NCBI GenBank assembly: GCA_016933095.1
Contig: JAFGBP010000042.1
Coordinates: 19,691 to 83,690, forward strand
Direction: 5' to 3'
Origin: Candidatus Woesearchaeota archaeon
GTDB taxonomy: Archaea > Nanobdellota > Nanobdellia > Woesearchaeales > SM23-78
DNA: 64,000 nucleotides
The translations under genes and the position numbers were made by a program. Within the stretch, counting starts at the first letter, position 1. Every line of letters starts with the position of its first letter. A model generated the notes under the pieces. The model saw only the letters and a program-made list of their open reading frames with translations. It ran no database searches and was not told the origin of the DNA. This document shows, in pieces, positions 6,491 through 60,430 of the stretch.

Positions 6491-8095
6491 CTAGTGCAGC
6501 GCCATCTTCTTCATGTTATCCTTATGCTTCTTCTTCTCTTTCTGCCTTGGCGTCAGCCTCTTCTTGCCGCTCTTCTTCACCTTCCCCGCCACTGGTTTAT
6601 GCGCAGGCTGTTTGATGTGACTCACGTAGGCAGCTGCAGCTCCCGAGTCAGCAATGGACAGCTGGTGCATGGCCGGCGAAGCGCTCTTTGCCATGGGCGC
6701 TGGCTTTGACACCGTTGGCTTGTGGTCCTTCGGCGGAGAGCCTTCTGCAATCTTGTCCAGGTGCTCTTGCACGAATCCGAGGTCTGACAACGCTTCCTCG
6801 CAGAACTGCAATGCTCCCTCGTGGAAGTTCTTCACAGGGTCAGAGTCGTTCTTTGCCAAGACGTCGATTATCTTGTCGTTTCCATAGGGATCACGGTCGA
6901 GCTTGAGCAGGCCTGTAAGATCATTGAGATCGAACACCTCAGATTCCTTCTTCGTCGAAACCAATAGGGTGTCCTGAATCTTCTTGAGCAGTCTCACAGC
7001 AGCCGCCTTCCTCCTAGCAGGAGTCTCGTCTTTCAACTCTGTAAACTCGTTGTAATGCTCGGCGTCAACCCTTATCTTCTTCCTCATCGACTCTGTGCCG
7101 CCGCGGCGCACGCTATACACGCGCCCGATGACTGCATTGATGGCCTTGGCCTTATCCTCGATACTCGCCACAAACTTCTTAACGTCATCCTCTGTATCGA
7201 GGACTGCAACTTTGGGCTTGGAAGCGGGCTTCGGCTTAGGTGCCGGAGCAGCTTTCTCCTTTATTATCACAATCTCCTTCTTCTCAACAGGAACCTTTGA
7301 CTCAGTCTCGCTGGTCTCGTGCTCCCTCTCCCTGGTCGTCGTCTCCTCTACCTCTTTTGAACGCGCGTGCTCATGACGCACAAAGGCGTGCTGCAGCACG
7401 AGGATGGCCTCGAAGAGAAGCCCAATCACTATGTTGATGGTGCTAAGAGTCAGGTAGTCGAGAGGGCCAAGAAGCTTGGCCAGCCCCAATACAAGGAAGA
7501 GCCCTGTGAATATGAACGGAAATACCATCAAAAAGCCAGACTCCATGTGATACTTATCGACTAGTACGTAAGTGACGACTATAGTAAGCAGTGCTGGAGA
7601 GAATCCGAGGAACGTGTAGAAAGGCCCGGAGTCAGTTATCAAGCTCAGCACTATCACGCCAATGAACCACAATATCAGAGCGATCACGCAAGTGACCTTC
7701 AACACCTTATCAACGATGATCTCGACCTCATCCTCCTGATGAGTCTCAGTCTCCACTGTCTTCTCGACAGTCTTCTCGTGAGTGGCAGTATGCGATGAGT
7801 GGAGCGGCTGGTGATAAGCCTGCCGTAAAGCATGCATATGAGCCTGCGAACGCATGGACGGATGGGAATGGATCGAACCTGGATGGTGATGCAAGACCTG
7901 ATGAGAAGCATGAGCGGGATGATGGTTGTGAACCGGATGATGATGCGGATGAGATGGAACAGGATTTGCAGGTACGTGGTGGAATGTATGCGGCGTCGGC
8001 AAGATCCTGGCCTCGTCAGCCTTCTTTTTATCCCTTGCAGGGACTTTAGGTATGACTACATCCTCCAAACTGCTGATTCCACCTCTTTTCAACAT
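6491..8095 (-). CDS. membrane protein with histidine-rich N-terminal region and lysine-rich C-terminus
   Basis: N-term HHPVHNHHPAHASHQVLHHHPGSIHSHP low-complexity His tract; central hydrophobic helices; C-term KKSGKKRLTPRQKEKKKHK. Confidence 0.5.
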   Translation of the reverse strand: MLKRGGISSLEDVVIPKVPARDKKKADEARILPTPHTFHHVPANPVPSHPHHHPVHNHHPAHASHQVLHHHPGSIHSHPSMRSQAHMHALRQAYHQPLHSSHTATHEKTVEKTVETETHQEDEVEIIVDKVLKVTCVIALILWFIGVIVLSLITDSGPFYTFLGFSPALLTIVVTYVLVDKYHMESGFLMVFPFIFTGLFLVLGLAKLLGPLDYLTLSTINIVIGLLFEAILVLQHAFVRHEHARSKEVEETTTREREHETSETESKVPVEKKEIVIIKEKAAPAPKPKPASKPKVAVLDTEDDVKKFVASIEDKAKAINAVIGRVYSVRRGGTESMRKKIRVDAEHYNEFTELKDETPARRKAAAVRLLKKIQDTLLVSTKKESEVFDLNDLTGLLKLDRDPYGNDKIIDVLAKNDSDPVKNFHEGALQFCEEALSDLGFVQEHLDKIAEGSPPKDHKPTVSKPAPMAKSASPAMHQLSIADSGAAAAYVSHIKQPAHKPVAGKVKKSGKKRLTPRQKEKKKHKDNMKKMALH

Positions 8096-8133
8096 TTCTA
8101 GGCTTATTGTTATTTAAGCTTTTCGCCGGAAGC

Positions 8134-8256
8134 GGCTCTGTTCAAAATCTCTCGTAGCCCGCCGCGACCGCTTATTAATAACATCCTTTAGCCGAGTCTA
8201 GTCTGATCGTATGGTATTTCGTATGCGCAGCAAGGGGCTACTTTTTGAACAGAGCC
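8134..8256. mobile_element. MITE-like element copy 1 (terminal inverted repeats GGCTCTGTTCAAAA / TTTTTGAACAGAGCC, flanked by 9-bp direct repeat GCCGGAAGC)
   Basis: TIRs and putative TSD (8125-8133 and 8257-8265) read directly; homologous copies at 34909 and 60223. Confidence 0.65.
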
Positions 8257-8423
8257 GCCGGAAGCCAACCAAAAGGCCGTGCCCCCTAGCGCAGCTTACG
8301 ACAGCATGTTCAAACAGAGGAAGAATCGGTTCGATACACGATGAACTGGAGCGCGGAGCGGGGCACGGAAAGAATGCTTAAGCAGGAAAAGAGTTTTAAA
8401 CAAGGCCCCATACCTGACGTATC

Positions 8424-8951: not shown

Positions 8952-10170
8952 CTAAGAGCTTAAGAGGTGATCAGTCTCTTTCTTCATCCTCGCCTCGTAC
9001 TCGTATTTCTTCTCGCCGTCTTTCTGCTCATCTGATAGCAGCCGAAGGAGCTCTCTTATCAGCTTCTCTTCCTTCTTCTGGTCGCCGGAGTATCTTGAGG
9101 CGTCCTGCTTCGCTGCGTGCTTCTGTATTAGCTCTGCTTCCAGCTCTTCTGCAGTGCCTGAGTGGACTATCATCTCTGTGAATTCCTTTGACGTGAGCTT
9201 TGACGTGCTTCTCATCACGAAGAACGCTCCTTTGTTGTAAAGGCTCTTTACGAATGACTTGAAGTCAATGTCGGAGGGCTTGCCGCTCTTGAGCTCGCCG
9301 TGGACCTTTACGAGCACTATCGCGTTGTTGAACTCCTTGAGCTTTATTGCAGAGTCGAGCTCGTGGTAGACTTCTTCAGGAGTCTTGTTCTGGGCATCTG
9401 CCTCTATTCGGTAGACGCTCTTGACGTTCAGGGGCTGGTATTCAAGCTCTCCGTCTTCATAGATGTAGAACCCGCCCTTTCCCAGGCTCCATGCCTCGCT
9501 GAAATTGGCAGGGAAGATGGGGCCCGGGTAAACGACATTTTTTCGCTCTGCTAAATCCTTTGCTTCTACTATATGAATGTGACCGCCAGCGTAATAGTCG
9601 AATCCTCTCGGAAACTCGCTTGCGCTTATCCCCCGTATCACTTTCATCTCCGTTGGGAGGAGCTCTTCGACTGTCGTGTGGAAGAGGAATATCTTAGGGC
9701 CCAATGCCTGCTCCAAAGGCTCTATGTCCAGGGAATCGTATTCTTCCTGCTCCAGGCTTCCTTTCCTGCCGCCTATGCCTGTAAGCTTGGCCTTGGTCTT
9801 CGGGTCCTCTGTGAAACTGAGTTTTAGCTTGCCTTCGATAACTTCTCCTTTCATGACGTTCTTCAGGAGCTCTGTCTCTTCGAGGACGTCGAGGATGGTC
9901 TTCCCGCTGGCTGAGTAGTCGTGGCTTCCGGGGACGACGTAGACAGGGATGTGGGCTTGCTTCAGTTTCTTCAGCAGGATGACGGTCTCCTGCAGGTGGT
10001 CTATCGCAGGTACTGCGGTGTTGAAGAGATCCCCTGCTATTATGACGAAGTCGAGTTTCTTCTCGAGAATGACGGTGATGGCTCTCCTGAAGGCTTCGAG
10101 TGAGAGGTTCTTCATGAGCGGGTCTCTCCATGCTCCTATGTGGACGTCTGCTAGATGTGCGAATCGCATA
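8952..10170 (-). CDS. mre11: Mre11/SbcD-like calcineurin-type phosphoesterase (DNA repair nuclease)
   Basis: MRFAHLADVHIGAW...IIAGDLFN...VVPGSHDY motifs; start moved to this Met (ORF-track upstream extension is hydrophobic junk and would overlap TATA). Confidence 0.65.
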
Positions 10171-14443: not shown

Positions 14444-15091
14444 ATGAAAACAGAATTGAGTCCAGAACTGGCAGAGTTTGTAGGCATTGTCATGGGAGAT
14501 GGATATATCTATTTGAATAAAGGCAAGTATCTTCTAGGCATTGTGGGGCATCCAAAAAAAGACAGAGCGCATTTCAAGCACATTAATGATCTTATCATGT
14601 CCCTTTTCCAGCATAAACCTACGATTGTCACAAGAGCCAGAGGATTAAGACTTACTCTTTACTCAAAGCAAGCATGCACTCTCTTAACAAAAGAAATCGG
14701 TCTTGTTCACGGCAAAGGTAAGGGAGAAAACGTGACAATTCCACAAGTATTCCTGAAGGACGATTCTCTTCTTAATAGTTTAATTAGAGGCTTATTCGAT
14801 ACGGATGGTAGCATCTTCACGTCCAACAAGAAAGGAGCACCCGATTATCCCACAATAGAATTGACAACCACAAGCATCCGCTTAGCAGAACAAGTCAGAG
14901 ACATTCTCATAAAAAAAGGCTTCAGGGTGGCTAATGTCCGGAGGTACAAATCAAAAAGAAGCGTTCTGGATACACACAAAGTCTCGTTGTACGGACATAA
15001 GAACATGATGTTATGGAGAGAAATAATCGGATTCTCCAACTCTTACAAGCAAGAGAGATTAAGAAGAATAAGTGGGTCGGGCGTGATTTGA
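14444..15091 (+). CDS. free-standing LAGLIDADG homing endonuclease (two LAGLIDADG motifs)
   Basis: LAEFVGIVMGDGYIY and LIRGLFDTDGSIF motifs; AGGAGGA RBS; ORF visibly AT-richer than neighbours. Confidence 0.8.
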   Translation: MKTELSPELAEFVGIVMGDGYIYLNKGKYLLGIVGHPKKDRAHFKHINDLIMSLFQHKPTIVTRARGLRLTLYSKQACTLLTKEIGLVHGKGKGENVTIPQVFLKDDSLLNSLIRGLFDTDGSIFTSNKKGAPDYPTIELTTTSIRLAEQVRDILIKKGFRVANVRRYKSKRSVLDTHKVSLYGHKNMMLWREIIGFSNSYKQERLRRISGSGVI

Positions 15092-15703: not shown

Positions 15704-17332
15704 TTAAATGCCCTCGAACTTCTTCTCGCCTGCGAGGAGCTTCCTGATGACGTCCTTCAGCTCGGATGTCTTCACTCTCACCTGCTTCTCAGTGTCCCTG
15801 TCTCGAAGAGTGACTGTCTCTTCCCCTTCGAGCGTCTCGTAGTCGACTGTGATGCAGTAGGCAGTCCCTGCCTCTGCGGCGCGCAGGTATCTCCGTCCGA
15901 TGGCTCCGGTCTCGTCGTAAGAGCATACCATGTCTTTCCTTAAATCCTGGAATATCGCCATCGCGACCTTGACCAGCTCCGGCTTCTTCATCAATGGGAA
16001 GACCGATACTGGTATCGGACTCATCTGGTATGGTATCTTAAGCGTAGTCTTCCCTTCGTCGACCGCTTTCTGGTCGTAGAAGTTGTCCAGGATGGCGAAC
16101 GTCGGCCTGTCAGAGCCGAACGCTATCTCGAGCACGTGAGGGATGTACTTCTCTTTTGATTCCTCGTCGAATGACTTGAGCTCTGTGCCGCTGAACTTGG
16201 CGTGCTGGGTGAGGTCGTAGTCAGTCCTGTCGTGCACTCCGCACATCTCTACCCATCCGAAGCTCTTGGTCTTGACTTCCACGTCCCATGCGTCGTCGGC
16301 GTAGAACGCCTTCTCATCCGGGAAGTGTTGCCTCATCCTGATGTGGCTGTCTGGTATGCCAATGTTCTTGAAGAACTTGTAAGCGAGATTGATTGCCCAG
16401 GCGTATGCCTGGCTCTTGAAGTATTTCTTCTCAAGCGCGTGCTTGAGTGAGATCTTCTTGACTGCTTCTGCTTTCTCCTGGCTCTTGTAGTCCCAGAGCG
16501 GCAGCTCGTCATTTGCGACTGCCTTGAAGCGGTCGAAGTTGTTCTTGAGCTCTTTCTTTATGAAGAACTGCGCTTCTGCCTGCGTGAACTCGCGCCCCCG
16601 TACTACGTGCTGCCTCGGGCTGATCTCGTTCCTGAAGGCTTTTCCGATCTGGAAGACTCCGAAGGCCGGCTTCTTCCTGAAGTAGTCGACATACCTTAGG
16701 AAGGGCAGGTATGTGGTAGTCGCGGTCTCTGGCCGATTGTAGGCTTCTGTGTCGATGCCTATCGTGGTCCTCATCATGAGGTCGTGGTTCTTGATCTCTT
16801 CCTTGAGCGCTCCGCCGCACGACGGGCAGGCAATCTTGTGCTTCTTTATGAAATCCAGGAACTGCTTGTGCTCCTTGAAGTGCCTGGTCTCAGGGTTATC
16901 CCCCAACAGGTGGTCTAGCCTGTGGTTGGCGTTGCATTTTGAACAGGTGATGATTGCGTCTGAGAATCCTGCGAGGTGGCCTGATGCCTCCCATACTTTC
17001 CGCTCCATCACGATCGGGCACTCAACCTCTAAGAAGCTCTCTGATCCAAAGGTCTTCCTGATCATGTTCTCGACGTTGTTCTTGAGGAGCTTTCCTAAAG
17101 GCCCGTATGTGTAGAATCCTGCGACGCCGCCATATATCTCTGGCTCGGGCCCCCAGACAAATCCCTTCCTCTGCAGGAAGCTTACGAGTTCCTGGACAGG
17201 GTCGGCCTTGACAGGCTTAGCTGGCTTTGGAGCGTTCTCAGGCTTTGCCTTGTGCTCTGCCTCGTGTTCCTTGGCGTGCTCTTTGTGAGCCTCCTTGGCG
17301 TGGGGCTCATTCTTATCCGTCATAGAGGTCAA
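15704..17332 (-). CDS. glyS: glycyl-tRNA synthetase, archaeal/eukaryotic alpha2 type, with Lys/His-rich N-terminal extension
   Basis: IYGGVAGFYTYGPLGKLLKNNVENMIRKTF closely matches GlyRS signature; class II motifs; 542 aa. Confidence 0.85.
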   Translation of the reverse strand: MTSMTDKNEPHAKEAHKEHAKEHEAEHKAKPENAPKPAKPVKADPVQELVSFLQRKGFVWGPEPEIYGGVAGFYTYGPLGKLLKNNVENMIRKTFGSESFLEVECPIVMERKVWEASGHLAGFSDAIITCSKCNANHRLDHLLGDNPETRHFKEHKQFLDFIKKHKIACPSCGGALKEEIKNHDLMMRTTIGIDTEAYNRPETATTTYLPFLRYVDYFRKKPAFGVFQIGKAFRNEISPRQHVVRGREFTQAEAQFFIKKELKNNFDRFKAVANDELPLWDYKSQEKAEAVKKISLKHALEKKYFKSQAYAWAINLAYKFFKNIGIPDSHIRMRQHFPDEKAFYADDAWDVEVKTKSFGWVEMCGVHDRTDYDLTQHAKFSGTELKSFDEESKEKYIPHVLEIAFGSDRPTFAILDNFYDQKAVDEGKTTLKIPYQMSPIPVSVFPLMKKPELVKVAMAIFQDLRKDMVCSYDETGAIGRRYLRAAEAGTAYCITVDYETLEGEETVTLRDRDTEKQVRVKTSELKDVIRKLLAGEKKFEGI

Positions 17333-21142: not shown

Positions 21143-21658
21143 TCATTTAGGCAGTCTGTTCTTTTCCAACAGTTCTTCTGCCTTGTTCAGGAAGTCTATT
21201 GTTTTCTTCTGATATTCCTTCACTTTTTCTGTTGTAAACAGCGTGTTTGTCGCGTAGTTTGCCTGCCTTCTTGTTTCTTTAAGGTTCGCATAGAATTCCG
21301 CATCGGATTTTGTAATTGCTAAGTTTTCTATCAGCTCTGCATCTGCCTTTTTAATCTTGTACTCTTTAATGAGGAACAGCAGCGTCGAATCGTGACTTTT
21401 GGAAGTATATCCTTTGTTTGCAATTAGCGCGAGTGCCGCGTGGTACGCGGCGTAGTACAGCACCACAATAAGCCAATCGTTGAACTCTGACTCGCTCACG
21501 TTTTTCTGGAAGAATTTGAGGTTATGCTTAGCTTTGTCCAGATGGGCTTTTATCAGGCTCGTTGCAAATGGTTCTTTTCTGAGCAGATTATGGTGCTTGT
21601 ATTTTTCAAGTTCATCATTTAGCAATTTTTCATTGTCATAAAATTGTCCGACGTTCAT
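21143..21658 (-). CDS. HEPN-domain protein (putative toxin partner of MNT)
   Basis: 171 aa all-helical; 4-nt ATGA overlap with upstream MNT gene; classic HEPN/MNT operon arrangement; Rx4-6H motif not clearly seen. Confidence 0.5.
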   Translation of the reverse strand: MNVGQFYDNEKLLNDELEKYKHHNLLRKEPFATSLIKAHLDKAKHNLKFFQKNVSESEFNDWLIVVLYYAAYHAALALIANKGYTSKSHDSTLLFLIKEYKIKKADAELIENLAITKSDAEFYANLKETRRQANYATNTLFTTEKVKEYQKKTIDFLNKAEELLEKNRLPK

Positions 21659-22263
21659 TTTTTGATGACCTCGTGATAGAGTTGTTGGTTGAATATTGGA
21701 AAACCAGTTTCTTTTGCCTGACTTACTAGGTGGTCTTTGCCTTCTTTTAACAGTTGCGTATTGGTGAAAGCTAAGCTTAAATTATGGTTGGATCTTGACT
21801 GCACATCTCTTTTCAGGGATTCCATCTGCTGAATTATTTCAGTCTCATACATTTGCTGTAATTTCAGGGTGTTAAACTTGTGAAGCACAACAAGCAAATC
21901 AATGTCGCTCTTCTCAGTCTCAGCTTTTCTGGCGCTTGATCCAAACAAGACCATACTTGCCACCTCATTCGGCGTCTTGCCTACTAACTCCTTTAATGGC
22001 AACCTTATGTTTCGATTTAGCCCATTCAACCGAGTTAGGTCTATTTTTGTGAATTCTATCGCGAATCTTTCTTGGTCAGCCATTGTAAAAAATACGTTTG
22101 CCTTAGTCTTCTGACTTCCCAGAACATTCTTCTTCAACAGGGCGAGAGTTGTGTTTTGTATTGAGCTGTTTGACAAGCCAGTTAGGCTTTTGATCTCATT
22201 AAAATACAACATTTCCTTTTTGGAATCATAAAAAGCCTTGAAAATCTTTTCTTCCGCATTCAT
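21655..22263 (-). CDS. minimal nucleotidyltransferase (MNT) with N-terminal wHTH
   Basis: LFGSSARKAETEKSDIDLLVV = GS..x(9-13)DxD nucleotidyltransferase signature. Confidence 0.7.
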   Translation of the reverse strand: MNAEEKIFKAFYDSKKEMLYFNEIKSLTGLSNSSIQNTTLALLKKNVLGSQKTKANVFFTMADQERFAIEFTKIDLTRLNGLNRNIRLPLKELVGKTPNEVASMVLFGSSARKAETEKSDIDLLVVLHKFNTLKLQQMYETEIIQQMESLKRDVQSRSNHNLSLAFTNTQLLKEGKDHLVSQAKETGFPIFNQQLYHEVIKK

Positions 22264-22391: not shown

Positions 22392-22488
22392 TGCAGCCGC
22401 CGGGATTCGAACCCGAGTCACAGGCTCTTTCCAGATCCAAGAAAGGACCCTTGGGAAGCCCAGATCATAGCCACTAGACCACGGCTGC
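22392..22488 (-). tRNA. tRNA-Gly (anticodon CCC inferred) with ~24-nt intron at canonical 37/38 position
   Basis: acceptor GCAGCCG/CGGCTGC, T arm TCGGG-TTCGAAT-CCCGG, anticodon loop TTCCCAA by linear numbering; 97 nt total. Confidence 0.6.
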
Positions 22489-34252: not shown

Positions 34253-34858
34253 CTATCTTCGCCTGCGAACAGGAGGTTTTGCACGCACCCTCTGGGCAAC
34301 GGCTAGGCGAGGAGCAGGCTTGGAAGCAGAAGATGATTCCGACTTTGGAGCTGTTGAAGCCGGAGAACCAACAGGCGAATCATCAAAAGAAGAAGGTAGC
34401 GTCCTTAATATTATTCCTTTCTCCTCGATTAGGCGATCAAACTCCTTCCTTGTCAGGAACTCCATAGGCTGCCACATGTCAAGGTAGCGCTCAATCACTT
34501 TGAACTCCTCTTTCTTCGTGAGGTTCTTCATCTCATTGTTAATCAGCATGAGCTTGTCCATGATGTCCTTTAGCTCGTGCTTTAGGTCTAGGATGTCATC
34601 GTTTATCATCTTCAAGTCTTTGGAAAGGCCTCTCTCCAGCTCTATCATGCCGCCCTCGGAGACCTGGCTCTTGTTCCTCATCAGCACGAACCGCTCTTCA
34701 AGAATCCTTAAGTTGGCACCTATAGTGTTCACGTCTTTCCCCATCTTCTCGAAGGCATCCATGGTAGCAGGCATCTTCTTTACGGGCTTAGCGCTTGGCC
34801 TTTGCGGTGGAGGCGGAGGCACTCCTGCCATTGGAGGAGGCGGGATATTCTGGTTCAT
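34253..34858 (-). CDS. proline-rich N-terminus + coiled-coil protein (weak paralog of 33423..34016)
   Basis: MNQNIPPPPMAGVPPPPPQRP; coiled-coil core similar in pattern to neighbour. Confidence 0.5.
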   Translation of the reverse strand: MNQNIPPPPMAGVPPPPPQRPSAKPVKKMPATMDAFEKMGKDVNTIGANLRILEERFVLMRNKSQVSEGGMIELERGLSKDLKMINDDILDLKHELKDIMDKLMLINNEMKNLTKKEEFKVIERYLDMWQPMEFLTRKEFDRLIEEKGIILRTLPSSFDDSPVGSPASTAPKSESSSASKPAPRLAVAQRVRAKPPVRRRR

Positions 34859-34908
34859 GATAGTATCGACTCCTGGATTCAGAGTATTTAATATTTTTGG
34901 AAAAGAGA

Positions 34909-35125
34909 GGCTCTGTCAAAATCTCTCGTAGCCCGCTGCTACCGCTCATCAATAACGTCCTCGAGCCGAGTCTAGTCTGACCGCATGGCATTTCGTAGGC
35001 GCAGCCAGGGGCTACTTCTCTCGTAGCCCGCTGCTACCGCTCATCAATAACGTCCTCGAGCCGAGTCTAGTCTGACAGCATGGCATTTCGTAGGCGCAGC
35101 CAGGGGCTACTCTTTGAACAGAGCC
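34909..35125. mobile_element. MITE-like element copy 2 with internal ~95-bp tandem duplication; flanked by GGAAAAG direct repeats
   Basis: same TIRs as copy 1 (left TIR lacks one T); interior segment ctctcgtagcccgctgctaccgctcatcaataacgtcctcgagccgagtctagtctgac.gcatggcatttcgtaggcgcagccaggggctac present twice. Confidence 0.65.
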
Positions 35126-35329
35126 GGAAAAGCGAAGGCTTTTCCAGACAAAGAACGAAGTTCTGCTCTGGGAAAAAATGATGTCAAAAGACGTCAGAAG
35201 AGGGGCAAAAGATTTATATAATCTCAAGCTCAGGAGAGAGATATCAGTTAGCTTTAGCTATAACATCGCTGGGCTGACGGAAAAGAAGAGGAAAAGGGAA
35301 AATTAACAGCAAAAGAGGTTGGAACTAGA

Positions 35330-39993: not shown

Positions 39994-40035
39994 GGGTTTT
40001 GATAGATGTCATTGTTTGAGGGCTCTGCAGAAAAA

Positions 40036-40073
40036 GTGCCGCGGGGGAATCTTCGATTCCTCGTGCCAGAAAA
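40036..40073 (+). terminator. hairpin GGAATC-TTC-GATTCC followed by T7 tract
   Basis: read directly downstream of 37720..39993. Confidence 0.4.
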
Positions 40074-40317
40074 ACCTTTTTTTCCCGGCGCCTAGCGTGG
40101 TCTGCAGTTCAACAGCCGGCAGCAAAAGACTCTGTGGCTGCAACCAATGAGGGGTCGAACAGAGCCCGGCATGAAAGAAATTCTACAGGGCCTTGTTGGA
40201 GACAGGGTCGATAATGCAAAAAAATGCAAAGAACTAGGCTCTTAGGGAATCTTTTGCTTCACGTAGGAGGGATATGAGTTCTTCTTGCTAGTTTTCGGGC
40301 GAAGTCCACCCATCCTC

Positions 40318-41128: not shown

Positions 41129-42022
41129 ATGGATTCTGGTCTGGAAATTCTTAATCTCATTTGGGTGCAAGGGCAAACCTGTGGCGGAGATTCCATGGCA
41201 ATCATGGATACAGAGCGGCCTGACCTTCTTACATTCCTCTCACAAAACAAAATAAAGCTGCTTTATCACCCCATTCTCCACCCAGTCGACGGACCAGAGG
41301 CAAAGAAACTCTTTGAAGACTGCAAGGAAGGAAGAACAAAAGTAGACATTTTCATATTCGAAGGCACAATCCCGACAAAAGAAGGATGCGGAGACTGGCC
41401 TGGAACCGACATTAAGACCCTTGTAAAAGACCTTGCGTCCAAAGCAGGAATCACGATCGCGCTAGGAACCTGCGCGTCGTTCGGAGGAATCCCTTCGGCG
41501 CCTCCCAACGAGTCAGGATCAGTAGGACTCCAATTTCACGGCCACAAGAAAGGCGGATGGCTGGGAGAGAACTACATCTCAGAGCAAGGCGCTCCCGTCA
41601 TAAATATTCCTGGATGCCCTGCACACCCAGACTGGATCATAAGAACAATTCAAGCTTTTGTGTTGGAAAAGCCAGTCATTTTGGACGACTACAACAGGCC
41701 CAAAGACTTTTTCGAGGAGAAAGCCCACAGAGGATGCAAGCAATGCGAGTTTCACGAGCGAGGGCTGTGGGCAGAGGAGTTCACAGAGACAGGATGCCTG
41801 GCAGCAAAGCTTGGATGCAAGGGAAGGACCACGAACGCAGACTGCAACGTGAGGCTCTGGAACGGCGTTTCCTCCTGCACCAGGAGCGGAGCCCCGTGCA
41901 TAGGCTGCTGCGATCCAGGATTCCCCATCTCAATGACACCCTTCAACAAGGAAACCTTAAACCTGCCAGAGGACGTCAGATCCCTTGCGAATGAGAAGAA
42001 AAAGATCCTATACGGAGATTAA
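41129..42022 (+). CDS. [NiFe]-hydrogenase small subunit (three Fe-S clusters, no Tat signal); proximal-cluster CxxC replaced by C-G-G-D
   Basis: WVQGQTCGGDS, GTCASFGG, IPGCPAHP, H..C / C..C..C distal and CIGC medial cluster ligands all present. Confidence 0.9.
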   Translation: MDSGLEILNLIWVQGQTCGGDSMAIMDTERPDLLTFLSQNKIKLLYHPILHPVDGPEAKKLFEDCKEGRTKVDIFIFEGTIPTKEGCGDWPGTDIKTLVKDLASKAGITIALGTCASFGGIPSAPPNESGSVGLQFHGHKKGGWLGENYISEQGAPVINIPGCPAHPDWIIRTIQAFVLEKPVILDDYNRPKDFFEEKAHRGCKQCEFHERGLWAEEFTETGCLAAKLGCKGRTTNADCNVRLWNGVSSCTRSGAPCIGCCDPGFPISMTPFNKETLNLPEDVRSLANEKKKILYGD

Positions 42023-42040
42023 TATCATGGAGACGATGAG

Positions 42041-43570
42041 ATGGAAGAAGATATGACTGAAAAGGACATGACAAGCACCCCGACAAACTGGATTGAAGGA
42101 GACCTTACAGTTGAGATTACAGTCAACGCCCACAACAAGATAGCCGATGCAAAAGCCATGGGATTGATGTATAGGGGGCTGGAAAACATCTTCATCGGGC
42201 AAAGGCCGTTTGACGCCATGAGGATGAGCCAGAGGGCTGACGCCGCTTGCTCCACGGCGAATGGGACTGCCGGAGCCCTGGCCATTGAGAGGATGATGGG
42301 GTTCAAGCCTCCAAGGAATGGACAGCTCATCAGGGATATAGTGCTCGGGGCCAGCATTGCAGCAAACCACCTCACTCATTTTTATTTCACCTTGGGCCCC
42401 GGATTAGCAAGCCCTGAATACAAAAAGTTCAAGATGCATCACGAAATGCAAAAGAGATTTGACCCATCAAAAAGCGCGCTTCTCAAGGACGTGTTGAGAA
42501 AGGCAAGGATGCCGTTGCATAGGGCCATCGCGATTTTCGGCGGAAGATCATATCACCCCATGCACGCAGTGCCAGGAGGAGTATGCAGCATCCCAAAGTA
42601 CTCTGATCTGGCAGCGGCCAGTACAAGCGTCGCAGGCGCCAAGGAATTTTTGGAAGAGAACTTGCTTGGCGGGGTGAAGATGGAAGAATGGGCCAGGATA
42701 AGGACCGCCGACGAGCTCCTTGAACTACTAAAGGACAAGGCGTTTGCTGATTCAGACATCGGGCTTTTCATCAGGTATTCTCAGGAAATAGGACTTCACA
42801 AACTAGGCGAAGGAACCCACAACAATTTCTTGTCCTTCGGATTCGGAGAGAACAAGCATAATAACGGCATTGATAGCAGTCCCGATTCATGGCTCTTCAA
42901 ACCCGGATACGTGGAGAATGGCCAGTACCACGACCTAGACATCCAGCACATAACCGAAGATACTTCCCACTCTTATTATGAGACTGAAAGGGACTGGAGA
43001 AGCCCCCAGCACGGCATGACAAAGCCTATCCCAAGGAAAGAGGGAGCTTACAGCTGGGTCAAGTCTCCCAGATACTTTGGCAGAGCCTGCGAGGTAGGAC
43101 CGCTTGCAAGGCAGATAGTAAATGCAGACCTGCTCTGCATGGACTTAGTAAAGACCTTTGGGGTGAACACGTTCACAAGAACCCTGGCAAGGTTCCGCGA
43201 GATAACCCTTATAGTCCCAAAGCTCAAAGAGTGGATTGCAGAGATCGAATTGGAAAAGCCATTCTACAAACCATTCCCCGAAGTCAGCAACGGCTCCGGA
43301 TACGGCCTGGTGGAGTCCCCTAGAGGGGCTCTTGGCCACTGGATAAACATAAAGGAAGGCAAGTGCACAACATACCAGATGATCAGCCCTATCGACTGGA
43401 ACGCCTCGCCAATAGACTCTAACGGGGCTCACGGCGCCCTAGAGCAGGCCCTGATCGGCTGCAGGATAAAGGACAAAGACAGCCTCATTGAAGCCTCTCT
43501 TGTCGTGAAGGGCTTTGACTCCTGCATTGCCTGCTCAATACGGCCTGCCGCGCCAGGTGATGAGGAATAA
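42041..43570 (+). CDS. [NiFe]-hydrogenase large subunit-like protein; L1 motif RxCGxC degenerated to R-A-D-A-A-C; C-terminal DSCIACSIR retained
   Basis: colinear with HyaB-type large subunits (MYRGLE..GQRPFDA...QRADAACSTAN...LIRDIV...HFY); C-terminal two Cys present. Confidence 0.85.
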   Translation: MEEDMTEKDMTSTPTNWIEGDLTVEITVNAHNKIADAKAMGLMYRGLENIFIGQRPFDAMRMSQRADAACSTANGTAGALAIERMMGFKPPRNGQLIRDIVLGASIAANHLTHFYFTLGPGLASPEYKKFKMHHEMQKRFDPSKSALLKDVLRKARMPLHRAIAIFGGRSYHPMHAVPGGVCSIPKYSDLAAASTSVAGAKEFLEENLLGGVKMEEWARIRTADELLELLKDKAFADSDIGLFIRYSQEIGLHKLGEGTHNNFLSFGFGENKHNNGIDSSPDSWLFKPGYVENGQYHDLDIQHITEDTSHSYYETERDWRSPQHGMTKPIPRKEGAYSWVKSPRYFGRACEVGPLARQIVNADLLCMDLVKTFGVNTFTRTLARFREITLIVPKLKEWIAEIELEKPFYKPFPEVSNGSGYGLVESPRGALGHWINIKEGKCTTYQMISPIDWNASPIDSNGAHGALEQALIGCRIKDKDSLIEASLVVKGFDSCIACSIRPAAPGDEE

Positions 43571-53502: not shown

Positions 53503-55104
53503 GTGAGCCATATGAGCGAAAGACATGTAGCGTTAGTTTCATATGCCAATGTGAGTTACGGAGGGAAAGTAAGAGGACCAGTCCCGAGCGGACTCATGCT
53601 AGAAGGCACGCCGCATCTTGCCGGCCGGCTTCTAAAAGAAGGCTATATTCCCAGGATCTTTGATTTCAACAGCGTGCGAGGGGTCAGACGCCTCGCAGAA
53701 TCAGGCAGCGAAGCTTATGAAAAGGAATGCGCTCAAGAGATCATATCTTATGCGCGCGAGCATGAAGCTAAACTTGTCGGGTTCACTCTTTACAGCAATG
53801 GTTTCAAAGGCACGGTAAGGATAGCTGAGATGGTAAGAGAAACGCTTCCCGGAATATTCATCATGGGAGGGGGACCTCTGACAACTTGGGTGGAGAAGGC
53901 CATCTTCCGATACACCGACGCATTCGACGTCTTATGCATCGGGGAGGGGGATCTGTCCCTTCCCCGCACAGCCGATTCAATCTATGATGGAAGCATGTCG
54001 TTCTCGGATGCTCCCAACCTATTATTTAAAGACGGAAGCAGAACAAGAAGAGAAGTGACCAACATCTCTGAATTGCCATTTCCAACATATGACCCTCAAT
54101 TCTATCCTGACATAAAACATAAGATACAAATACCTGTATGCAGAGGAAGTGTCGGGTGCCGCTACGGCCAATGCTCTTTTTGCATCCAGCCAAAGACTGA
54201 CGGACCCTTCAGGATCCGGAACATCGATAACCTGCTGCAGGAGATATATTACCTAAAAGAAGAGCACTCATTCAGCAGGATCAGGCTCAGCGATCCCAAC
54301 CCTCCTCCAAAAGAGATGGTCAGGATTGCAGAGGGAATCGAGAGCCGGTTTCCAGGACAGATGAAGGTCTCTTCTTTCAATTATGCGGATGCACTGTATA
54401 ACTTTGAGAAGACAAAAAAGATCCAAGCAGGGGCGTTTGTAGGCATCGAATCATTCGACTTTGAAACGCTCCTAAAGCTGAACAAGACAAGGAACCCAGA
54501 GAAGTACGTGCGGGACGCCACGAGTCTTATTGAAACGGCGAAAAAACAGGGCATCCCCTCGGTCGTGGCCATAATAGTTCCTGTGGCCAACGACACGATC
54601 CGGAGGATAGAATATGATTATAACATGGTAAAGGAGCTCAACCCGGACTTTGTCGTGGGTGTGGCGCTTGGACCCTTGCCAGGGACACAGGATTATTTCT
54701 CTGCCTTGAACTTAGGAGAGGAATCTGGCATAAGGCTCAGTCCAGACTATGAGCATGAGCTGATGTTATGGGAACTTGACTTGCTTCAGCCTCCGTCGGC
54801 ATGGAGCCCTCCTCCCTGGGAACTGAAGGTCGACGGAAAGTTCTGCGGGAACCCTTTCCTGATAAATCACAAGCATTTCCTTGGAAAACTGATTGAAGAG
54901 GGATTCGAACCGGTAGCGGATGAAATTGTGCTCATGGCAGACCTTTTCTATAACGGTCTTCCAACAGAACAAAACGAACGTCGCCAGAAGATAATCCATT
55001 TCAACAAGGAGATCCGGAAAAGCATCGCTACCTCTGATTATGAGAGCCTGGAAAAGATCGTCACGGTGATAAACCACAATCAAAAGTCATCTCTGCGCCG
55101 CTAA
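53503..55104 (+). CDS. B12-binding-domain radical SAM family protein (putative)
   Basis: N-terminal Rossmann-like B12-binding-like region; Cys cluster CRGSVGCRYGQCSFC in place of canonical CxxxCxxC. Confidence 0.5.
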   Translation: MSHMSERHVALVSYANVSYGGKVRGPVPSGLMLEGTPHLAGRLLKEGYIPRIFDFNSVRGVRRLAESGSEAYEKECAQEIISYAREHEAKLVGFTLYSNGFKGTVRIAEMVRETLPGIFIMGGGPLTTWVEKAIFRYTDAFDVLCIGEGDLSLPRTADSIYDGSMSFSDAPNLLFKDGSRTRREVTNISELPFPTYDPQFYPDIKHKIQIPVCRGSVGCRYGQCSFCIQPKTDGPFRIRNIDNLLQEIYYLKEEHSFSRIRLSDPNPPPKEMVRIAEGIESRFPGQMKVSSFNYADALYNFEKTKKIQAGAFVGIESFDFETLLKLNKTRNPEKYVRDATSLIETAKKQGIPSVVAIIVPVANDTIRRIEYDYNMVKELNPDFVVGVALGPLPGTQDYFSALNLGEESGIRLSPDYEHELMLWELDLLQPPSAWSPPPWELKVDGKFCGNPFLINHKHFLGKLIEEGFEPVADEIVLMADLFYNGLPTEQNERRQKIIHFNKEIRKSIATSDYESLEKIVTVINHNQKSSLRR

Positions 55105-55725
55105 TGGAACCGGCTTGTCTGTCAATTTCGACAGGTCGAACTTGAACTTCTCAGGCAGCTGCCTCTTGATAAGAGAATCTTTCAGATTGAACTCGCTCTT
55201 GTTCTTTATCACGAATTCGCAGTATGGCTTTCCCTGGGCGATGCATTGCGTCTCAATGCAGATCAGATCTTCATTCTGAGTCATCTCTCTAAGAAGAGAA
55301 GTCATGCCTCCGCGGAACAAGACATCTACAGGATATTTCTGTAAGCCGAAAGTCTTCAGGTATTCCTTCGCATAAGTCGACTGGGCCCTCAAGATGTACT
55401 GATTCTTCTCAGTATCGACATGAACCAGATCCACAGTCCCCGCACCTATCATCTCAGCATGACCCTGCTGCATCTCCAATGCTTTCTGAGGAGAATAACC
55501 AAACCGCTTGATCATCATCTTAGCGCCCATCTTCGTCTGGATCTCCAGTATCTTATAGAATACATCGCTGCCTTTCTTCCCGAATTCCTCTTCCAGCAGC
55601 TTATGGACGATCACCATCACGTTCAATGACAACAGGTAGCCCGGAGATCCCAGGACCATAAGATATCCTCCTGCTTCATGCTTAATCTGCTTCTCGAAAA
55701 GCAATTTTCTCATAAAAGGATGCAT
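55087..55725 (-). CDS. V4R domain protein
   Basis: C-terminal C..ETQCIAQGKPYCEF pattern typical of V4R small-molecule-binding domain. Confidence 0.5.
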   Translation of the reverse strand: MHPFMRKLLFEKQIKHEAGGYLMVLGSPGYLLSLNVMVIVHKLLEEEFGKKGSDVFYKILEIQTKMGAKMMIKRFGYSPQKALEMQQGHAEMIGAGTVDLVHVDTEKNQYILRAQSTYAKEYLKTFGLQKYPVDVLFRGGMTSLLREMTQNEDLICIETQCIAQGKPYCEFVIKNKSEFNLKDSLIKRQLPEKFKFDLSKLTDKPVPLAAQR

Positions 55726-55729
55726 ACGA

Positions 55730-57157
55730 TCACCTCCTCAGATCAATGATCTTTTTGAGTTTTGTTTTTGATTCATTGAATAGCCTGCCAGGTTCCACCA
55801 GCTCTATCTGCGCCGGAGGGCAAAATTCTATGATATTGACAATTTGAGAGTACTCAAGCGAAGAGTTAGACAGAGCCTCATTGAATTTTCTGGAAAATGC
55901 GGATTCCATCTCGCGTTTTTCCCGTTCATTGGCAACTTCTTTCTCCACGTAGATGACCATGGCGTCCGAGAAGACGCCATCATTCTCATCTGACTTCCGA
56001 GTGAGCGTCAACTGGTATTTGTCCTCAAATCCTGCTAACTCGGCGGCGCTGTGGATCTGATCAGGATATATGTTGGCTCCTCCATACTGGAAAGTATCAT
56101 CGTACCTTCCCTTGATACGACTGATCAAAGGCAGGTTGAGCCCGCAGCCGCAAGATCCGTTCGGTTCCCCTTTTGAGATCAGATCTCCCATCCGATACCT
56201 GACAATGGGAATCGCCCTTTTTAAAAGGTTCGTTACCACCATGATACCTTCCTTCTGAGGCTCGTCTATAGGTTCTAACGTTTCCTTATCAAGGACTTCC
56301 ATGATCAGGTTCGGAGAATACCAATGCATCCATCCGGATTCCCTCAGGTGATCACATTCGGAAGCAGCGCCATATATCTCGGCACAGCCATAGAGATCAG
56401 AGACAGAAGTCTTGAACAGACGCTCATACCGTTTCCTGTCCGTCTCGGAAAAAGGCTCTCCCGCAAGGACTATCCTCTCAAGACCTAAAGAAGAGATATC
56501 CATTTTAGGCGACATCTTCTTCCAGAAAAACGACAGAAAAGAAGGATAGGTAATCAGATATTTCGGCTTCATGGTAAGCAGCTCTTCAACATGCCAATCG
56601 AACGGGAGATGAATCCCGGCAGTGACAGTCGGGCCGATCAAAGAACATGCGTTGAGTGAGAAAAACTGACTAGGCCATGGACCGCAAGGAAAGAGAGAAT
56701 ATATCTTTCCTCCGGCATCATCGCCGCCATTTGTCTTATAGTATCCCTTCACTCCGGCCAAGAAATTCATGACTGCCGTCTGGACAAAAATGCCCTCTTT
56801 CTCCTGATTGGTCACAGGTATCCTCTTGCATTTCCCTGTGGAACCTGACGTCTGAAGAAACCTCGCGATCTCGTGTTCAGGCACAGAATGAAACTCGTCA
56901 ATCGGATCATCAGTTATGTCTTTGGAAGTGACAATCGGCAGTCTGGTGATGTCAGAAGAGGATTTGATGTGTTTCGGAGAGACACCATGCAGATCCATCA
57001 TGCGCCTATAACGAGCATTGTTATTGTAATGGAAATCCACCAATCCGACAAAAGTCTGAGATTGGGATTCGGCGATGGTCTTTGAGTCTGTGTTTTTCAG
57101 CCGGTCCAACTCGTCTAAGAGCAACTTATCCATAATACACCTCTTATTCTCTTGCAA
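55730..57157 (-). CDS. phenylacetate-CoA ligase-like / coenzyme F390 synthetase-like adenylate-forming enzyme
   Basis: TSGSTGKCK AMP-binding P-loop; PaaK-like length. Confidence 0.65.
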   Translation of the reverse strand: MQENKRCIMDKLLLDELDRLKNTDSKTIAESQSQTFVGLVDFHYNNNARYRRMMDLHGVSPKHIKSSSDITRLPIVTSKDITDDPIDEFHSVPEHEIARFLQTSGSTGKCKRIPVTNQEKEGIFVQTAVMNFLAGVKGYYKTNGGDDAGGKIYSLFPCGPWPSQFFSLNACSLIGPTVTAGIHLPFDWHVEELLTMKPKYLITYPSFLSFFWKKMSPKMDISSLGLERIVLAGEPFSETDRKRYERLFKTSVSDLYGCAEIYGAASECDHLRESGWMHWYSPNLIMEVLDKETLEPIDEPQKEGIMVVTNLLKRAIPIVRYRMGDLISKGEPNGSCGCGLNLPLISRIKGRYDDTFQYGGANIYPDQIHSAAELAGFEDKYQLTLTRKSDENDGVFSDAMVIYVEKEVANEREKREMESAFSRKFNEALSNSSLEYSQIVNIIEFCPPAQIELVEPGRLFNESKTKLKKIIDLRR

Positions 57158-57184
57158 CTCTGCATTTAATTCAGTCGTCTAATA

Positions 57185-57964
57185 TCATTTAGAGGTCTCA
57201 TCAAAATCGTGCACAACCAATCCCTTGGATCCAATCTCCACAGGATGTATGTCCTCATCATTCTGCACATGCCTCATCTTCCTAACGAGCAGGCTTCTCG
57301 AGTACCGTCCACCCATAGACTCAAAACTCATATGGATTATTCCATCACATAAGAACTCTGATACCGAGTCTCTCGAGTATGCTTCTGATCCTTGCTCGAT
57401 CTCGGAGATTAGCATCGTCGTTATCTCGAGGTCTTGCAATTCACCTATTAGCATGTAGATGAATCTTTTGAGCAGGAAGTCTCCGCTGAGGGTCGGCGCG
57501 TATATGTTGTCTGGCATTATAAGGTCTCTGAGGAACAGGTCGTTTATCGCAGCGTATATGGGGGCGTTTATCGAGAGCGTGGAGAGCGAGTCTATGACTA
57601 GCCTTTTTATCTTGAAGTCTTTCACGTAGGATAGTATCTGGTCGAATGTGAGGTGGTCTATCTTCTTGACGGGTATGCATACGATGTGGAGCAGACCAGT
57701 AGCTTCCAGGGCCTTCAAGTCCCATCCGAACTGTGATGCTTGCCGGATTATGGAGTCCTTGTTCTGCTCAAAGCTCACGTACATGCTTGGTTCTTTGAAC
57801 TTTGAAGCGCCGTTTATTATGTACTGCAAGGAGAAGATGGTCTTTGCGGATCCTGGAGTTCCGCAGAGCAGTATGTTAGATCCGGCAGGGAATCCGCCTT
57901 GCACGAGCTTGTCGAATCCTGGGATTCCTGTCTTGCTCCTCTTAATCATGGTTGCTCTTTTCAT
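57185..57964 (-). CDS. KaiC-like (RecA-superfamily) single-domain ATPase
   Basis: GIPGFDKLVQGGFPAGSNILLCGTPGSAKT; start set to Met whose ATG overlaps the upstream stop (ATGA). Confidence 0.75.
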   Translation of the reverse strand: MKRATMIKRSKTGIPGFDKLVQGGFPAGSNILLCGTPGSAKTIFSLQYIINGASKFKEPSMYVSFEQNKDSIIRQASQFGWDLKALEATGLLHIVCIPVKKIDHLTFDQILSYVKDFKIKRLVIDSLSTLSINAPIYAAINDLFLRDLIMPDNIYAPTLSGDFLLKRFIYMLIGELQDLEITTMLISEIEQGSEAYSRDSVSEFLCDGIIHMSFESMGGRYSRSLLVRKMRHVQNDEDIHPVEIGSKGLVVHDFDETSK

Positions 57965-58683
57965 GGTCCCACCTGTATTCCTTCGTCTGTTATCTTGAAC
58001 CCGTGGATTCCTCCTTTGATGGAGGATCGCCTCATCTTCTGGACTTCCAGCGTCCTGAGGAAGGACTTTCCTATGGATCGTATGTCTAGTTTCACAACTC
58101 CGTCGCAAAGGTATTCTGATATTCCATCGCTCGTGACGGTGGGCTCGTCTCCAAGCCCTGAGACGTATATTGTGGTCGTGGGTATATCTTTTAGTATCGT
58201 GACGAGGTTGTAGACGAGCTGCTTTGGGGTGTTTGACACGCGGATCTTATCTTGGTAAAGGATGCTGAATTTCTTGTCTCCAGCCAGGAAGAATGGGCTC
58301 ATGGCCAGCAAGGTCAGGTTGTCAAGGGCCATCCTCTCTGCCTTGACCTTTCCTGCCTCCTCAAACACCTTGATGACGAAGTCTCTGTCAACGTCCTCTA
58401 TCTTCAGGGCGTATATCTTCATCAAGCCTTTTCTCATGTATTTCTTGACATCCCATCCTAGCTTTATGCATTGCTCTATGAGTTGCTCTTCTGTCTGGTC
58501 AAAACTGACAAAGAGCCCTGCCTCTCCCATCACGGCGCCTTTATAGATGTATTCCAGGGACATGATGGTCTTTCCGGACCCTGCTTTGCCGAAAATCATC
58601 ACGTTTGATCCTTTTATGAATCCTCCTCCTGTCAGTTCATCCAAACCCTCGATTCCTGAACTAATTCGTTTCATTAGCATCAC
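57961..58683 (-). CDS. KaiC-like single-domain ATPase
   Basis: GIEGLDELTGGGFIKGSNVMIFGKAGSGKT. Confidence 0.8.
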   Translation of the reverse strand: MMLMKRISSGIEGLDELTGGGFIKGSNVMIFGKAGSGKTIMSLEYIYKGAVMGEAGLFVSFDQTEEQLIEQCIKLGWDVKKYMRKGLMKIYALKIEDVDRDFVIKVFEEAGKVKAERMALDNLTLLAMSPFFLAGDKKFSILYQDKIRVSNTPKQLVYNLVTILKDIPTTTIYVSGLGDEPTVTSDGISEYLCDGVVKLDIRSIGKSFLRTLEVQKMRRSSIKGGIHGFKITDEGIQVGP

Positions 58684-59134
58684 CAGCCACTATGAGCTCC
58701 TGCCTTAGCAGGTTTTCCTGTTGCTTTTCAAGAGTCCCTTTTGAGACTTGTACTATAAACACGCAGCCGTACTCGGCGGCGAAGTCATGAATCGTCTGTA
58801 TGAGGTGAAGCACGTCTTGGAAGGAGTTGAAGCTTATCAAGTATTCTACGCATAGCAGGAGGACTGCGCCTCCGAAGTTGTCCTTCATGAAATGCTCTAG
58901 GTCATATGAGAGCTGCTCGATGTCTTGCGGCGCCAGGTGGGCTTCTGAAGTGTTTATGTTAGTGATCCACTTGGTCCGGATATCCTTTCCTTTGATATAA
59001 GCATCTTCTTTCTGGGGGTGCACGCGCCATACCACTAGGCCTTTTGTCTTAGGGTTGAGAAGTTCTGAGAATTGGGCAAACACCCTGTCAAAGTTATTCT
59101 CGAATATAAGGTATGACTCCCCGTGCTTAAACAT
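58661..59134 (-). CDS. DUF835-like protein (KaiC-associated)
   Basis: GESYLIF...LLLCVEYLISFNSFQDVLHLIQTIHD fits DUF835 pattern from memory. Confidence 0.5.
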   Translation of the reverse strand: MFKHGESYLIFENNFDRVFAQFSELLNPKTKGLVVWRVHPQKEDAYIKGKDIRTKWITNINTSEAHLAPQDIEQLSYDLEHFMKDNFGGAVLLLCVEYLISFNSFQDVLHLIQTIHDFAAEYGCVFIVQVSKGTLEKQQENLLRQELIVAGDANETN

Positions 59135-59351
59135 CTCTTAACCTCTTTTTCACTTTGCGGTCTCTTATGATCTTTTTTTGCCTCTTTTGATGCTGAAGAA
59201 AAAAATAAAAACAAAAAACTTCAACTCGCCCTGCATGCCGTGCCTGTACGCAAAATTTGCGTGTGCAGTTATCTCTGCGCTTCAAATCCCTGTGCGCGTC
59301 GAATCCGTATGTCGGTACAGACGCTGGTCCTAGAGATTCTTGCACGTGTAG

Positions 59352-60065
59352 CTAATGATCCATTAGTTTCAACAGCTTTATGCCTGATTCTGAGATGTCG
59401 AGGAGGAATTGCTCTTCGCTGTGCTTGCATCCTCTCATCTTTACGACCTGCAGAGTTTTTCTCAGCCTGTAGTTCTTCTCTATGTGATCCAGGTATATGA
59501 TGCCGTCGCATATGAACTCCTCCACTCCAAAGTTCGAGTAGCGCCTTGCGCCGGGCTCTACTTCTGAGACGAGGATCGCAGAGCACCCTTTGAAGAGGAG
59601 CAGGTTGCCAAGGTCAAAGAGGAACTTCCTCACGTGGTCAGGGTCGTCGAAGCGCTTGCATATGGCGCTTATTGAGTCGATGACCAGCCTCTTGGGCTTG
59701 TACCTGTCGAGCTGCTCGTATATAAAGTTCAGCACGTCTACTGACTTGAATACTGACTTGTCAGGATTGTCCGCCGGGATGGCGGTTCGCACGTCTACGA
59801 GCACTAGCTTGTTCTTGTTGATCCAATCCTCGTTAAAGAAGGAAAAGGACTTGAAGTTCTCAACCAGCTTTAGGTCTTGCTCGTTTAGCGACAGGAAGAG
59901 GGTTTTTTCGTCCATGTTGGAGCATGCGCCGCATAGGAACTGCATTGTGAGGGTGGTCTTTCCCGTCCCTGCGCTTCCTGCTAGGAGTATGATGTTCTTC
60001 TCAGGTATTCCTCCGTCAAGAATCTTGTCCAGATCTTCAATGTATGTCTTAATCTTTTCTACCAT
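59352..60065 (-). CDS. KaiC-like single-domain ATPase
   Basis: IEDLDKILDGGIPEKNIILLAGSAGTGKTT. Confidence 0.8.
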   Translation of the reverse strand: MVEKIKTYIEDLDKILDGGIPEKNIILLAGSAGTGKTTLTMQFLCGACSNMDEKTLFLSLNEQDLKLVENFKSFSFFNEDWINKNKLVLVDVRTAIPADNPDKSVFKSVDVLNFIYEQLDRYKPKRLVIDSISAICKRFDDPDHVRKFLFDLGNLLLFKGCSAILVSEVEPGARRYSNFGVEEFICDGIIYLDHIEKNYRLRKTLQVVKMRGCKHSEEQFLLDISESGIKLLKLMDH

Positions 60066-60222
60066 AACTGCACCTCTGTTTAAAGTTGAACAGTACTCTT
60101 ATGAATTACTCTAATCTTATGAATACATCGAATGCTCCAAATGCTTCGAACGAATATTCAAAACGCTAATATGAGCATCTTTGGAGGGAATCATTTAATA
60201 ATTTTACGTATTTTTCCGGAAT

Positions 60223-60336: not shown

Positions 60337-60430
60337 GAATTGTATTTTCCCGAAATATTTTAGACAAAGGGGTATTATTCAAAAATCATGCAAAACAATA
60401 CCATCCAAACCCACGCAAGCTTTATCACAC

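Follow-up and report, generated by a model that had tools for sequence, protein, structure and literature searches.

Results

Gene content of the window

The 64,000-nt stretch of woesearchaeotal DNA analysed here, which we call the window, carries genes for aminoacyl-tRNA synthetases, an aldolase, a [NiFe] hydrogenase, a pilus ATPase and a KaiC cluster, and three of its intergenic regions hold copies of one repeated element of about 123 bp. The gene content, together with an intron-bearing tRNA gene, is what one would expect of DPANN chromosomal DNA, and the product of the gene next to copy 1 of the element is 100% identical to the hypothetical protein JW711_03515 from a 'Candidatus Woesearchaeota archaeon' MAG of sample SRR13394437. 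That tRNA gene (22392-22488, minus strand) has a 28-nt insertion, an intron, in its anticodon loop, which is an archaeal hallmark; it scores 42.9 bits against Rfam and was missed by ARAGORN in bacterial mode. Beside it, on the minus strand, an ORF with a HEPN domain (21143-21658) shares 4 nt with a nucleotidyltransferase ORF (21655-22263), and the two look like an MNT/HEPN toxin-antitoxin pair. A LAGLIDADG_3 homing-endonuclease-like domain is encoded by a free-standing ORF at 14444-15091 (plus strand), which neighbours the gene of a class II aminoacyl-tRNA synthetase (15704-17332), an arrangement that recurs in relatives (contig L142, 15071-15892; contig L143, 5410-6114). The small and large subunit genes of the [NiFe] hydrogenase lie at 41129-43570 (plus strand), and the related MAG L008 carries the hydrogenase maturation genes hypA/C/D/E and hycI. 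Finally, a cluster at 55087-63689 comprises three KaiC-like ATPases, a DUF835 protein, a V4R protein, an AMP-binding enzyme, an HTH_20 regulator, a CHASE4 histidine kinase and a response regulator, and is conserved and syntenic in the related contigs L138 and L140.

Copies, ends and coding capacity of the element

An all-against-all repeat search of the window returned one family, with units at 8148-8257, 34922-35031, 35017-35126 and 60233-60342, that is, four core units at three intergenic loci. An nhmmer profile of these units matched them with E values of 1e-38 to 1e-45 in the 64-kb window, and the profile search found no further copies there beyond the three loci. A first-pass annotation of this DNA had described three intergenic copies with terminal inverted repeats (TIRs) of about 14 bp, and all three were recovered. 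The best preserved is copy 1 (8134-8256, plus strand; 123 bp; profile E value 1.2e-44), whose 14-bp TIRs at 8134-8147 and 8243-8256, GGCTCTGTTCAAAA, agree without a mismatch, so that the ends as a pair read GGCTCTGTTCAAAA ... TTTTGAACAGAGCC. Copy 2 (34909-35125, plus strand) extends to 217 bp, with a 1-nt deletion in the left TIR and one mismatch in the right; its core carries the internal duplication of about 95 bp already reported for it, which proved to be a head-to-tail tandem of 95-bp units (34922-35111, 2.0 copies, 98% matches). Copy 3, recognised by its profile match and its inner TIRs, is the most diverged. The locus had been correctly picked out, and its extent, originally given as 60223-60336, is better drawn at about 60219-60341 (plus strand); the inner TIRs CTGTTCAAAA/TTTTGAACAG are intact and the outer 4 nt are degenerate, leaving boundaries good to within about 4 nt. 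Copies 1 and 2 are 88% identical, and copy 3 is 72-74% identical to either. A length of 123 bp lies within the size range of MITEs (below about 500 bp), and the TIRs of copies 2 and 3 are near-perfect.

The interior of the element is GC-rich and largely self-complementary, and its lack of coding capacity, as first proposed, is borne out: the ORFs that overlap copy 1 are of 24-56 aa and none is conserved among the copies, and the 95-bp duplication of copy 2, not being a multiple of 3, breaks any reading frame. Among the approximately 55 ORFs of the window none has a transposase or integrase domain. The neighbouring genes of the three loci are mutually unrelated and the copies intergenic, and we therefore rejected the possibility, which the first-pass annotation had named as one that would overturn its reading, that the copies are parts of a single duplicated gene fragment.

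Predicted fold and the possibility of an RNA gene

As anticipated, the element is predicted to fold into a long hairpin with paired termini: for copy 1 the end-to-end fold has an energy of -44 kcal/mol, with z scores of about -4.3 on the plus strand and about -4.0 on the minus strand. Such a fold is what one would expect of a structured small-RNA gene family, or of cis-regulatory RNA hairpins, giving an RNA of about 120 nt with a cellular function, and a small-RNA gene family was the alternative raised alongside the transposon when the element was first described. Copy 3 is predicted to fold better on the minus strand (-48 kcal/mol) than on the plus strand (-32 kcal/mol), which suggests G:U pairs there and would suit an RNA; this is a single case, however, and strand-biased transitions could explain it equally well. 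Against an RNA gene, the sole match in the window at the Rfam gathering threshold was one tRNA, and even at E values up to 10 nothing overlapped the element. Covariation folding, a check suggested at the outset, also spoke against it: the RNAalifold covariation term was positive, that is, unfavourable, on both strands (+1.9 and +1.6 kcal/mol; low power, with only three independent sequences). A single pair showed compensatory change, whereas copy 3 breaks 9-10 of the 34-37 pairs, and we saw no sign of selection acting on the structure.

Direct repeats flanking the copies

For each copy we took the best-scoring direct repeat that abuts both ends of the element and set its score against those at 20,000 random pairs of sites. 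Copy 1 is bounded by GCCGGAAGC on the left (8125-8133) and on the right (8257-8265), identical at 9/9 positions and flush with the TIR ends, just as first noted. The flanks of copy 2 had been described as GGAAAAG; a repeat is indeed present, and in place of an offset 7-mer it reads flush over 10 nt, GGAAAAGAGA (34899-34908) against GGAAAAGCGA (35126-35135), with 9/10 matches between the two sides (GGAAAAG[A/C]GA). Copy 3, whose flanking repeats had been thought less clear, has a flush match of 10/11 between GTATTTTTCCG (60208-60218) and GTATTTTCCCG (60342-60352). The fraction of random sites reaching these scores was 1e-4 for copy 1, 6.5e-4 for copy 2 and 1e-4 for copy 3, in each case below 0.1%. 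A flush repeat, different in sequence from copy to copy, thus bounds every copy, as expected of the target-site duplications (TSDs) of a MITE, and a lack of TSDs at the second and third copies, which had been set down as a result that would count against the transposon, did not materialise.

The duplication is exactly 9 bp, the length typical of the IS903 group, in the intact copy 1. Copies 2 and 3 read 10 and 11 nt flush, and a 9-bp fit with 8/9 matches needs a change of 1-2 nt at a junction: in copy 2 it involves a 1-nt ambiguity at one junction, and in copy 3 it is obtained as TATTTTTCC/TATTTTCCC if the ends are placed at 60218 and 60342.

Host promoters beside the copies

Next to the left end of every copy lies a TATA-like box (16-20 nt from that end, with ATTTAA starting 22-26 nt before it), which at first sight would favour a transcribed RNA gene. 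Read on the minus strand, though, the sequence beside each copy is an A-rich BRE followed by TTAAAT, that is, a core promoter directed toward the leftward gene, with the BRE on the element side and the box pointing away from the element. These promoters lie at 8110-8124 for gene 6491-8068 (CGAAAAGC TTAAATAA), adjoining the TSD of copy 1; at 34885-34898 for gene 34253-34858, adjoining the repeat of copy 2; and at 60192-60209 for the KaiC-like gene 59352-60065, adjoining copy 3 (all minus strand). We rejected the TATA-like box as a part of the element or as its own promoter and regard it as host sequence because the same promoters are conserved in relatives that lack the element, as detailed below.

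All three copies are in the same orientation relative to these promoters, 7-11 nt from the TATA box and at the upstream edge of the BRE, an arrangement available at only 0.7% of the intergenic positions of the window. Insertion at this edge could reflect a target preference for the T-run of the BRE or the survival of those insertions that spare the core promoter, and three sites fit either. On the other side, the right flanks of copy 2 (35140-35153) and copy 3 (60356-60369) have TTTTnnAGACAAAG in common, starting 15 nt past the element end. This too is host sequence, because a counterpart, CCTTTGATTA, is present on the other strand in an element-free relative, and the right-flank motif AGACAAAG, considered as a piece of the element, was likewise rejected on the strength of its presence in a relative without the element. 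The likeness of two unrelated target sites on both sides may reflect a target preference.

The gene downstream of the first promoter, 6491-8068 (minus strand), appears to be N-terminally short in its GenBank model (448 aa); a Shine-Dalgarno sequence, AAAGAGGTG, and a TTG start at 8068 (EDVVIP...) match the start of the orthologue in L008. The intervening region of this gene is His-rich and of low complexity.

Empty orthologous sites and distribution

The orthologous regions of related Woesearchaeota were fetched through the neighbouring proteins, and at all three sites (the comparison with related genomes that had been called for) the same host promoters were found with the element missing. 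At the copy 1 site, contig L008 (JW826 MAG; 9940-10003) keeps the promoter as GCCGAAAAGCTTATATAAAG, together with the Shine-Dalgarno ribosome-binding site and the start codon of the orthologue. At the copy 2 site, contig L142, whose pilus ATPase is 78% identical to that of the window, keeps the promoter in GAGTATTTAATATTTTTGGAAA, identical at 22/22 nt to the left flank up to the duplicated target, and continues into an ordinary spacer with no element; a second, divergent promoter at this locus (CAAAAGATTTATATAATC) is likewise conserved there. At the copy 3 site, contig L138 (JW826 MAG) has a KaiC protein 77% identical to that of the window, the gene order HTH - KaiC, and the promoter in the form ACGTAAACTTATTAAATGAT...CTCCAAGGATGCT; it aligns over the junction of copy 3 and the promoter without the element (TTCCG...ACGTAAA.TTATTAAATGAT...CTCCAA.GATGCT), and its KaiC-upstream intergenic region is 176 nt long against 365 nt in the window.

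A profile search of 140 kb of related loci found no copy of the element. An exact scan for the core pattern TAGCCCGCNGCNACCGC...GAGTCTA in 185,579 species genomes, JGI metagenomes and IMG/VR gave only unrelated matches, one at a high-GC bacterial locus and one further chance match. Scans of viral contigs with the right-end motif, the paired inner TIRs and the 14-mer gave chance matches in phage genes and no paired ends enclosing a transposase, and BLAST of the element against plasmids and phages returned nothing relevant. Because the sites are empty in the relatives and the 140 kb and the pattern scans hold no copies, we regard the element as a lineage-specific insertion.

These empty sites, the decisive evidence in our view, also bear on the RNA gene, since they indicate an insertion and not an ancient RNA gene; flanking duplications, moreover, are not expected of gene paralogues. 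With no Rfam match, no covariation, a promoter facing the wrong way and relatives that do without the element, we consider a functional small RNA highly improbable, and the least probable of the explanations weighed here.

Among the contigs retrieved outside the window, the profile matched only three independent Logan contigs from the same genome (L007, L010 and L137; SRR13394437), and all of these end inside the element, at window positions 8161, 8185 and 60295, reaching copy 1 from both sides and copy 3 from one side; nucleotides 8162-8184 lie outside both contigs that reach copy 1. Such ends are expected at a repeat, where assemblies break, and they suggest branching of the assembly graph from further copies or variants in the sample.

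Candidate relics

Three further sites had been listed as related fragments. At 8306-8318, where a fused-TIR footprint had been seen, there is just a 7-8-nt resemblance to the inner TIR that has no statistical support, and an excision footprint was rejected: cut-and-paste footprints keep the terminal nucleotides and not the inner TIR.

The degenerate copy placed at about 40010-40148 fared better in its termini, once shifted to 40021-40166 (plus strand): GGCTCTG on the left and GAACAGAGCC on the right are in the correct convergent arrangement, of which chance alone would give about 0.2 7-mer pairs and fewer counting the 10-mer match. The likeness of the interior to that of the element was not significant (p about 0.07), flush-repeat scoring found no flanking direct repeat, and the ends are unpaired in the best predicted fold. 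The spacer between the convergent genes at this locus is 324 nt in the window against 8 nt in relatives, and extra DNA has thus been gained here; 40021-40166 is possibly an old relic, or else belongs to a second family that has these ends.

The third site, a TIR-related palindrome near the KaiC-like gene, does exist, at 60076-60093 and not at 60082-60099. This sequence, CTGTTTAAAGTTGAACAG, looks like a fusion of the two inner TIR arms and overlaps the KaiC-like gene's ribosome-binding site. It occurs nowhere else in the window, and 100 shuffles yielded no such palindrome. It is missing from the orthologous KaiC leader in L138, which is shorter by about 65 nt, and it may be a collapsed relic. 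The added length in the window lies in the 5' leader at 60094-60160, where a 10-nt direct repeat, TCTTATGAAT, occurs at 60098-60107 and 60116-60125, 8 nt apart; the pair could be a footprint-like or a slippage structure.

Similarity of the ends to known insertion sequences

The inverted repeats of the IS903 group are of the GGCTTTGTTG... type, to which the ends of the element may belong. The element end GGCTCTGTTCAAAATCTC agrees with the IS903B inverted repeat GGCTTTGTTGAATAAATC at 13/18 positions (binomial p about 1e-4 at fixed register, for a comparison chosen among many insertion-sequence groups). IS903B, a member of the IS5 family, duplicates 9 bp of its target (PMC10569121). The target motif of IS903 is WTTYA-N9-TRAAW (PMC2577343), and at copies 1-3 its left half-site agrees at 4/5, 4/5 and 3/5 positions. 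The right half-site does not follow the motif, with agreement at 2/5, at most 1/5 and 3-4/5, respectively, a soft criterion applied to three sites.

Discussion

We found in a woesearchaeotal genome a family of short intergenic repeats that is, with high probability, a non-autonomous transposon (MITE) mobilised in trans, as the first-pass annotation had proposed. We favour this reading because the element has TIRs, TSDs at three of three copies and no conserved coding capacity, and because the orthologous sites in relatives are empty; several mutually unrelated loci are occupied in the window, and at each the element is missing from the related genomes.

One could envision its spread as follows. 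A transposase encoded elsewhere would bind both 14-bp TIRs and cut at the element ends; the ends would then be joined to a target cut with a 9-bp stagger, and repair of the stagger would leave the 9-bp flanking duplication. Copy 1, with perfect ends and a perfect duplication, would be a recent insertion; copy 2 would be slightly older and would have acquired its internal 95-bp duplication later by slippage; and copy 3 would be old and decaying. All three insertions at the upstream edge of the BRE/TATA region would have left the promoter intact, perhaps through a preference for the T-rich flank of the BRE.

The end sequence and the duplication length would be those of an enzyme of the IS5 family, similar to the IS903 group, and, judging from 18 nt of the end and the duplication length, we consider an IS903-like DDE transposase acting in trans slightly more probable than not. 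Some IS4-family groups typically make duplications of variable length, and flush repeats of 9, 10 and 11 nt could accordingly point to an origin from, or mobilisation by, a different transposase family, such as an IS4-family ISH8-like enzyme or another archaeal DDE transposase with 9-11-bp duplications. The symmetric target motif of IS903 is unmatched on the right side and no partner is seen in the window, both of which agree with such an origin. However, the sole undecayed copy has exactly 9 bp, and the ends start with GGCT.TGTT and show the similarity to IS903B and ISAba12 described here, whereas IS4-family ends usually start with CA; we thus regard a different transposase family as possible, though rather unlikely.

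The closest described analogue is MITEAba12, an element of 113 bp with 16-bp ends (GGCTTTGTTGCACAAA) and 9-bp duplications that is mobilised by ISAba12 in Acinetobacter (PMC6382973). Its ends, which ISAba12 has as well along with the 9-bp duplication, agree with the GGCTCTGTTCAAAATC of our element at 10/16 positions, and at 8/9 of the first nine. Both are non-coding, of similar length (113 and 123 bp), carry 9-bp TSDs and lie in AT-rich intergenic DNA near promoters. The identity of MITEAba12 to its parent insertion sequence is confined to the ends, and that of our element would be likewise. In contrast to our element, MITEAba12 has a bacterial host, is 78% AT and has a demonstrated co-resident parent; outward sigma-70 promoters would have no relevance to an archaeal host. 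IS903 and IS903B themselves have in common with the element the 9-bp duplication and the T-rich left target flank, alongside the 13/18 match of the inverted repeat, but IS903, at 1,057 bp, is an autonomous bacterial insertion sequence with a DDE transposase, whereas the element has no gene; the hosts belong to different domains of life, and the right-flank target motif is not reproduced here.

Within the archaea, DPANN included, small TIR-bounded, intergenic, non-coding and lineage-specific repeats of this sort are established, and a census with MITE-Tracker, which unlike the present analysis gives no anatomy for individual families, counted about 105 MITEs per Mb in a Woesearchaea genome, among the most MITE-dense of archaeal genomes (PMC11602168). 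Palindromic elements derived from IS200/IS605 (PATEs) have no TIRs or TSD and carry subterminal hairpins, and we rejected such an origin for an element with TIRs and flanking duplications. On the MITE reading the element is a new member of a kind well known in archaea, and its position at the promoter edge is its sole unusual feature.

Alternatively, this position could be taken as the mark of a REP/ERIC-like intergenic palindrome, spread by recombination or maintained by the host for a role at promoters (as a protein-binding site or an insulator), and not, or no longer, a transposon. The uniform orientation and spacing of the copies relative to the TATA box of a leftward promoter would suit such a role, as would the short TIR-like palindrome where the KaiC-like gene has its ribosome-binding site. 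Like the element, ERIC and Correia (CREE/NEMIS) elements are imperfect palindromes in intergenic DNA, about 100-150 bp long, which fold from one end to the other, lie beside promoters and are capable of co-transcription as hairpins; they are bacterial, and the likeness is a functional analogy only. Correia elements have 26-bp TIRs and a TA duplication. Each copy in the window, by contrast, has a distinct direct repeat of its own abutting the inverted repeats, which is the mark of transposition by a staggered cut; the copies are decaying and not conserved, as their falling identities, broken pairs and internal duplication indicate; and the relatives run the same promoters without the element. 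We consequently see little likelihood in a host-maintained palindrome, only marginally more than in an RNA gene.

A transposon that specifically targets the upstream edge of archaeal BRE/TATA promoters, perhaps by recognising DNA bent or bound by TBP/TFB, is a more speculative extension of the MITE reading, and on three insertions we think it doubtful. If it were true, a reduced DPANN genome would harbour a mobile element that seeks out promoters. Such an element could rewire divergent promoters or act as an insulator between them, and its hairpin and TIR motifs could be co-opted as regulatory sites, as the palindrome at the KaiC ribosome-binding site might suggest.

At the practical level, the element accounts for oversized intergenic regions in this MAG and fragments metagenome assemblies, with Logan contigs ending within its copies. 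For the organism, the transposon reading would mean that a DNA transposon system with recent activity persists even in the compact genome of a DPANN archaeon that depends on a host, and at least one copy of the non-autonomous family still looks mobilisable. The resemblance of its ends is a hint that IS5/IS903-like enzymes operate in Woesearchaeota, and its consistent placement just upstream of three conserved core promoters, at their very edge, offers a small lead on how archaeal transposons may choose their targets.
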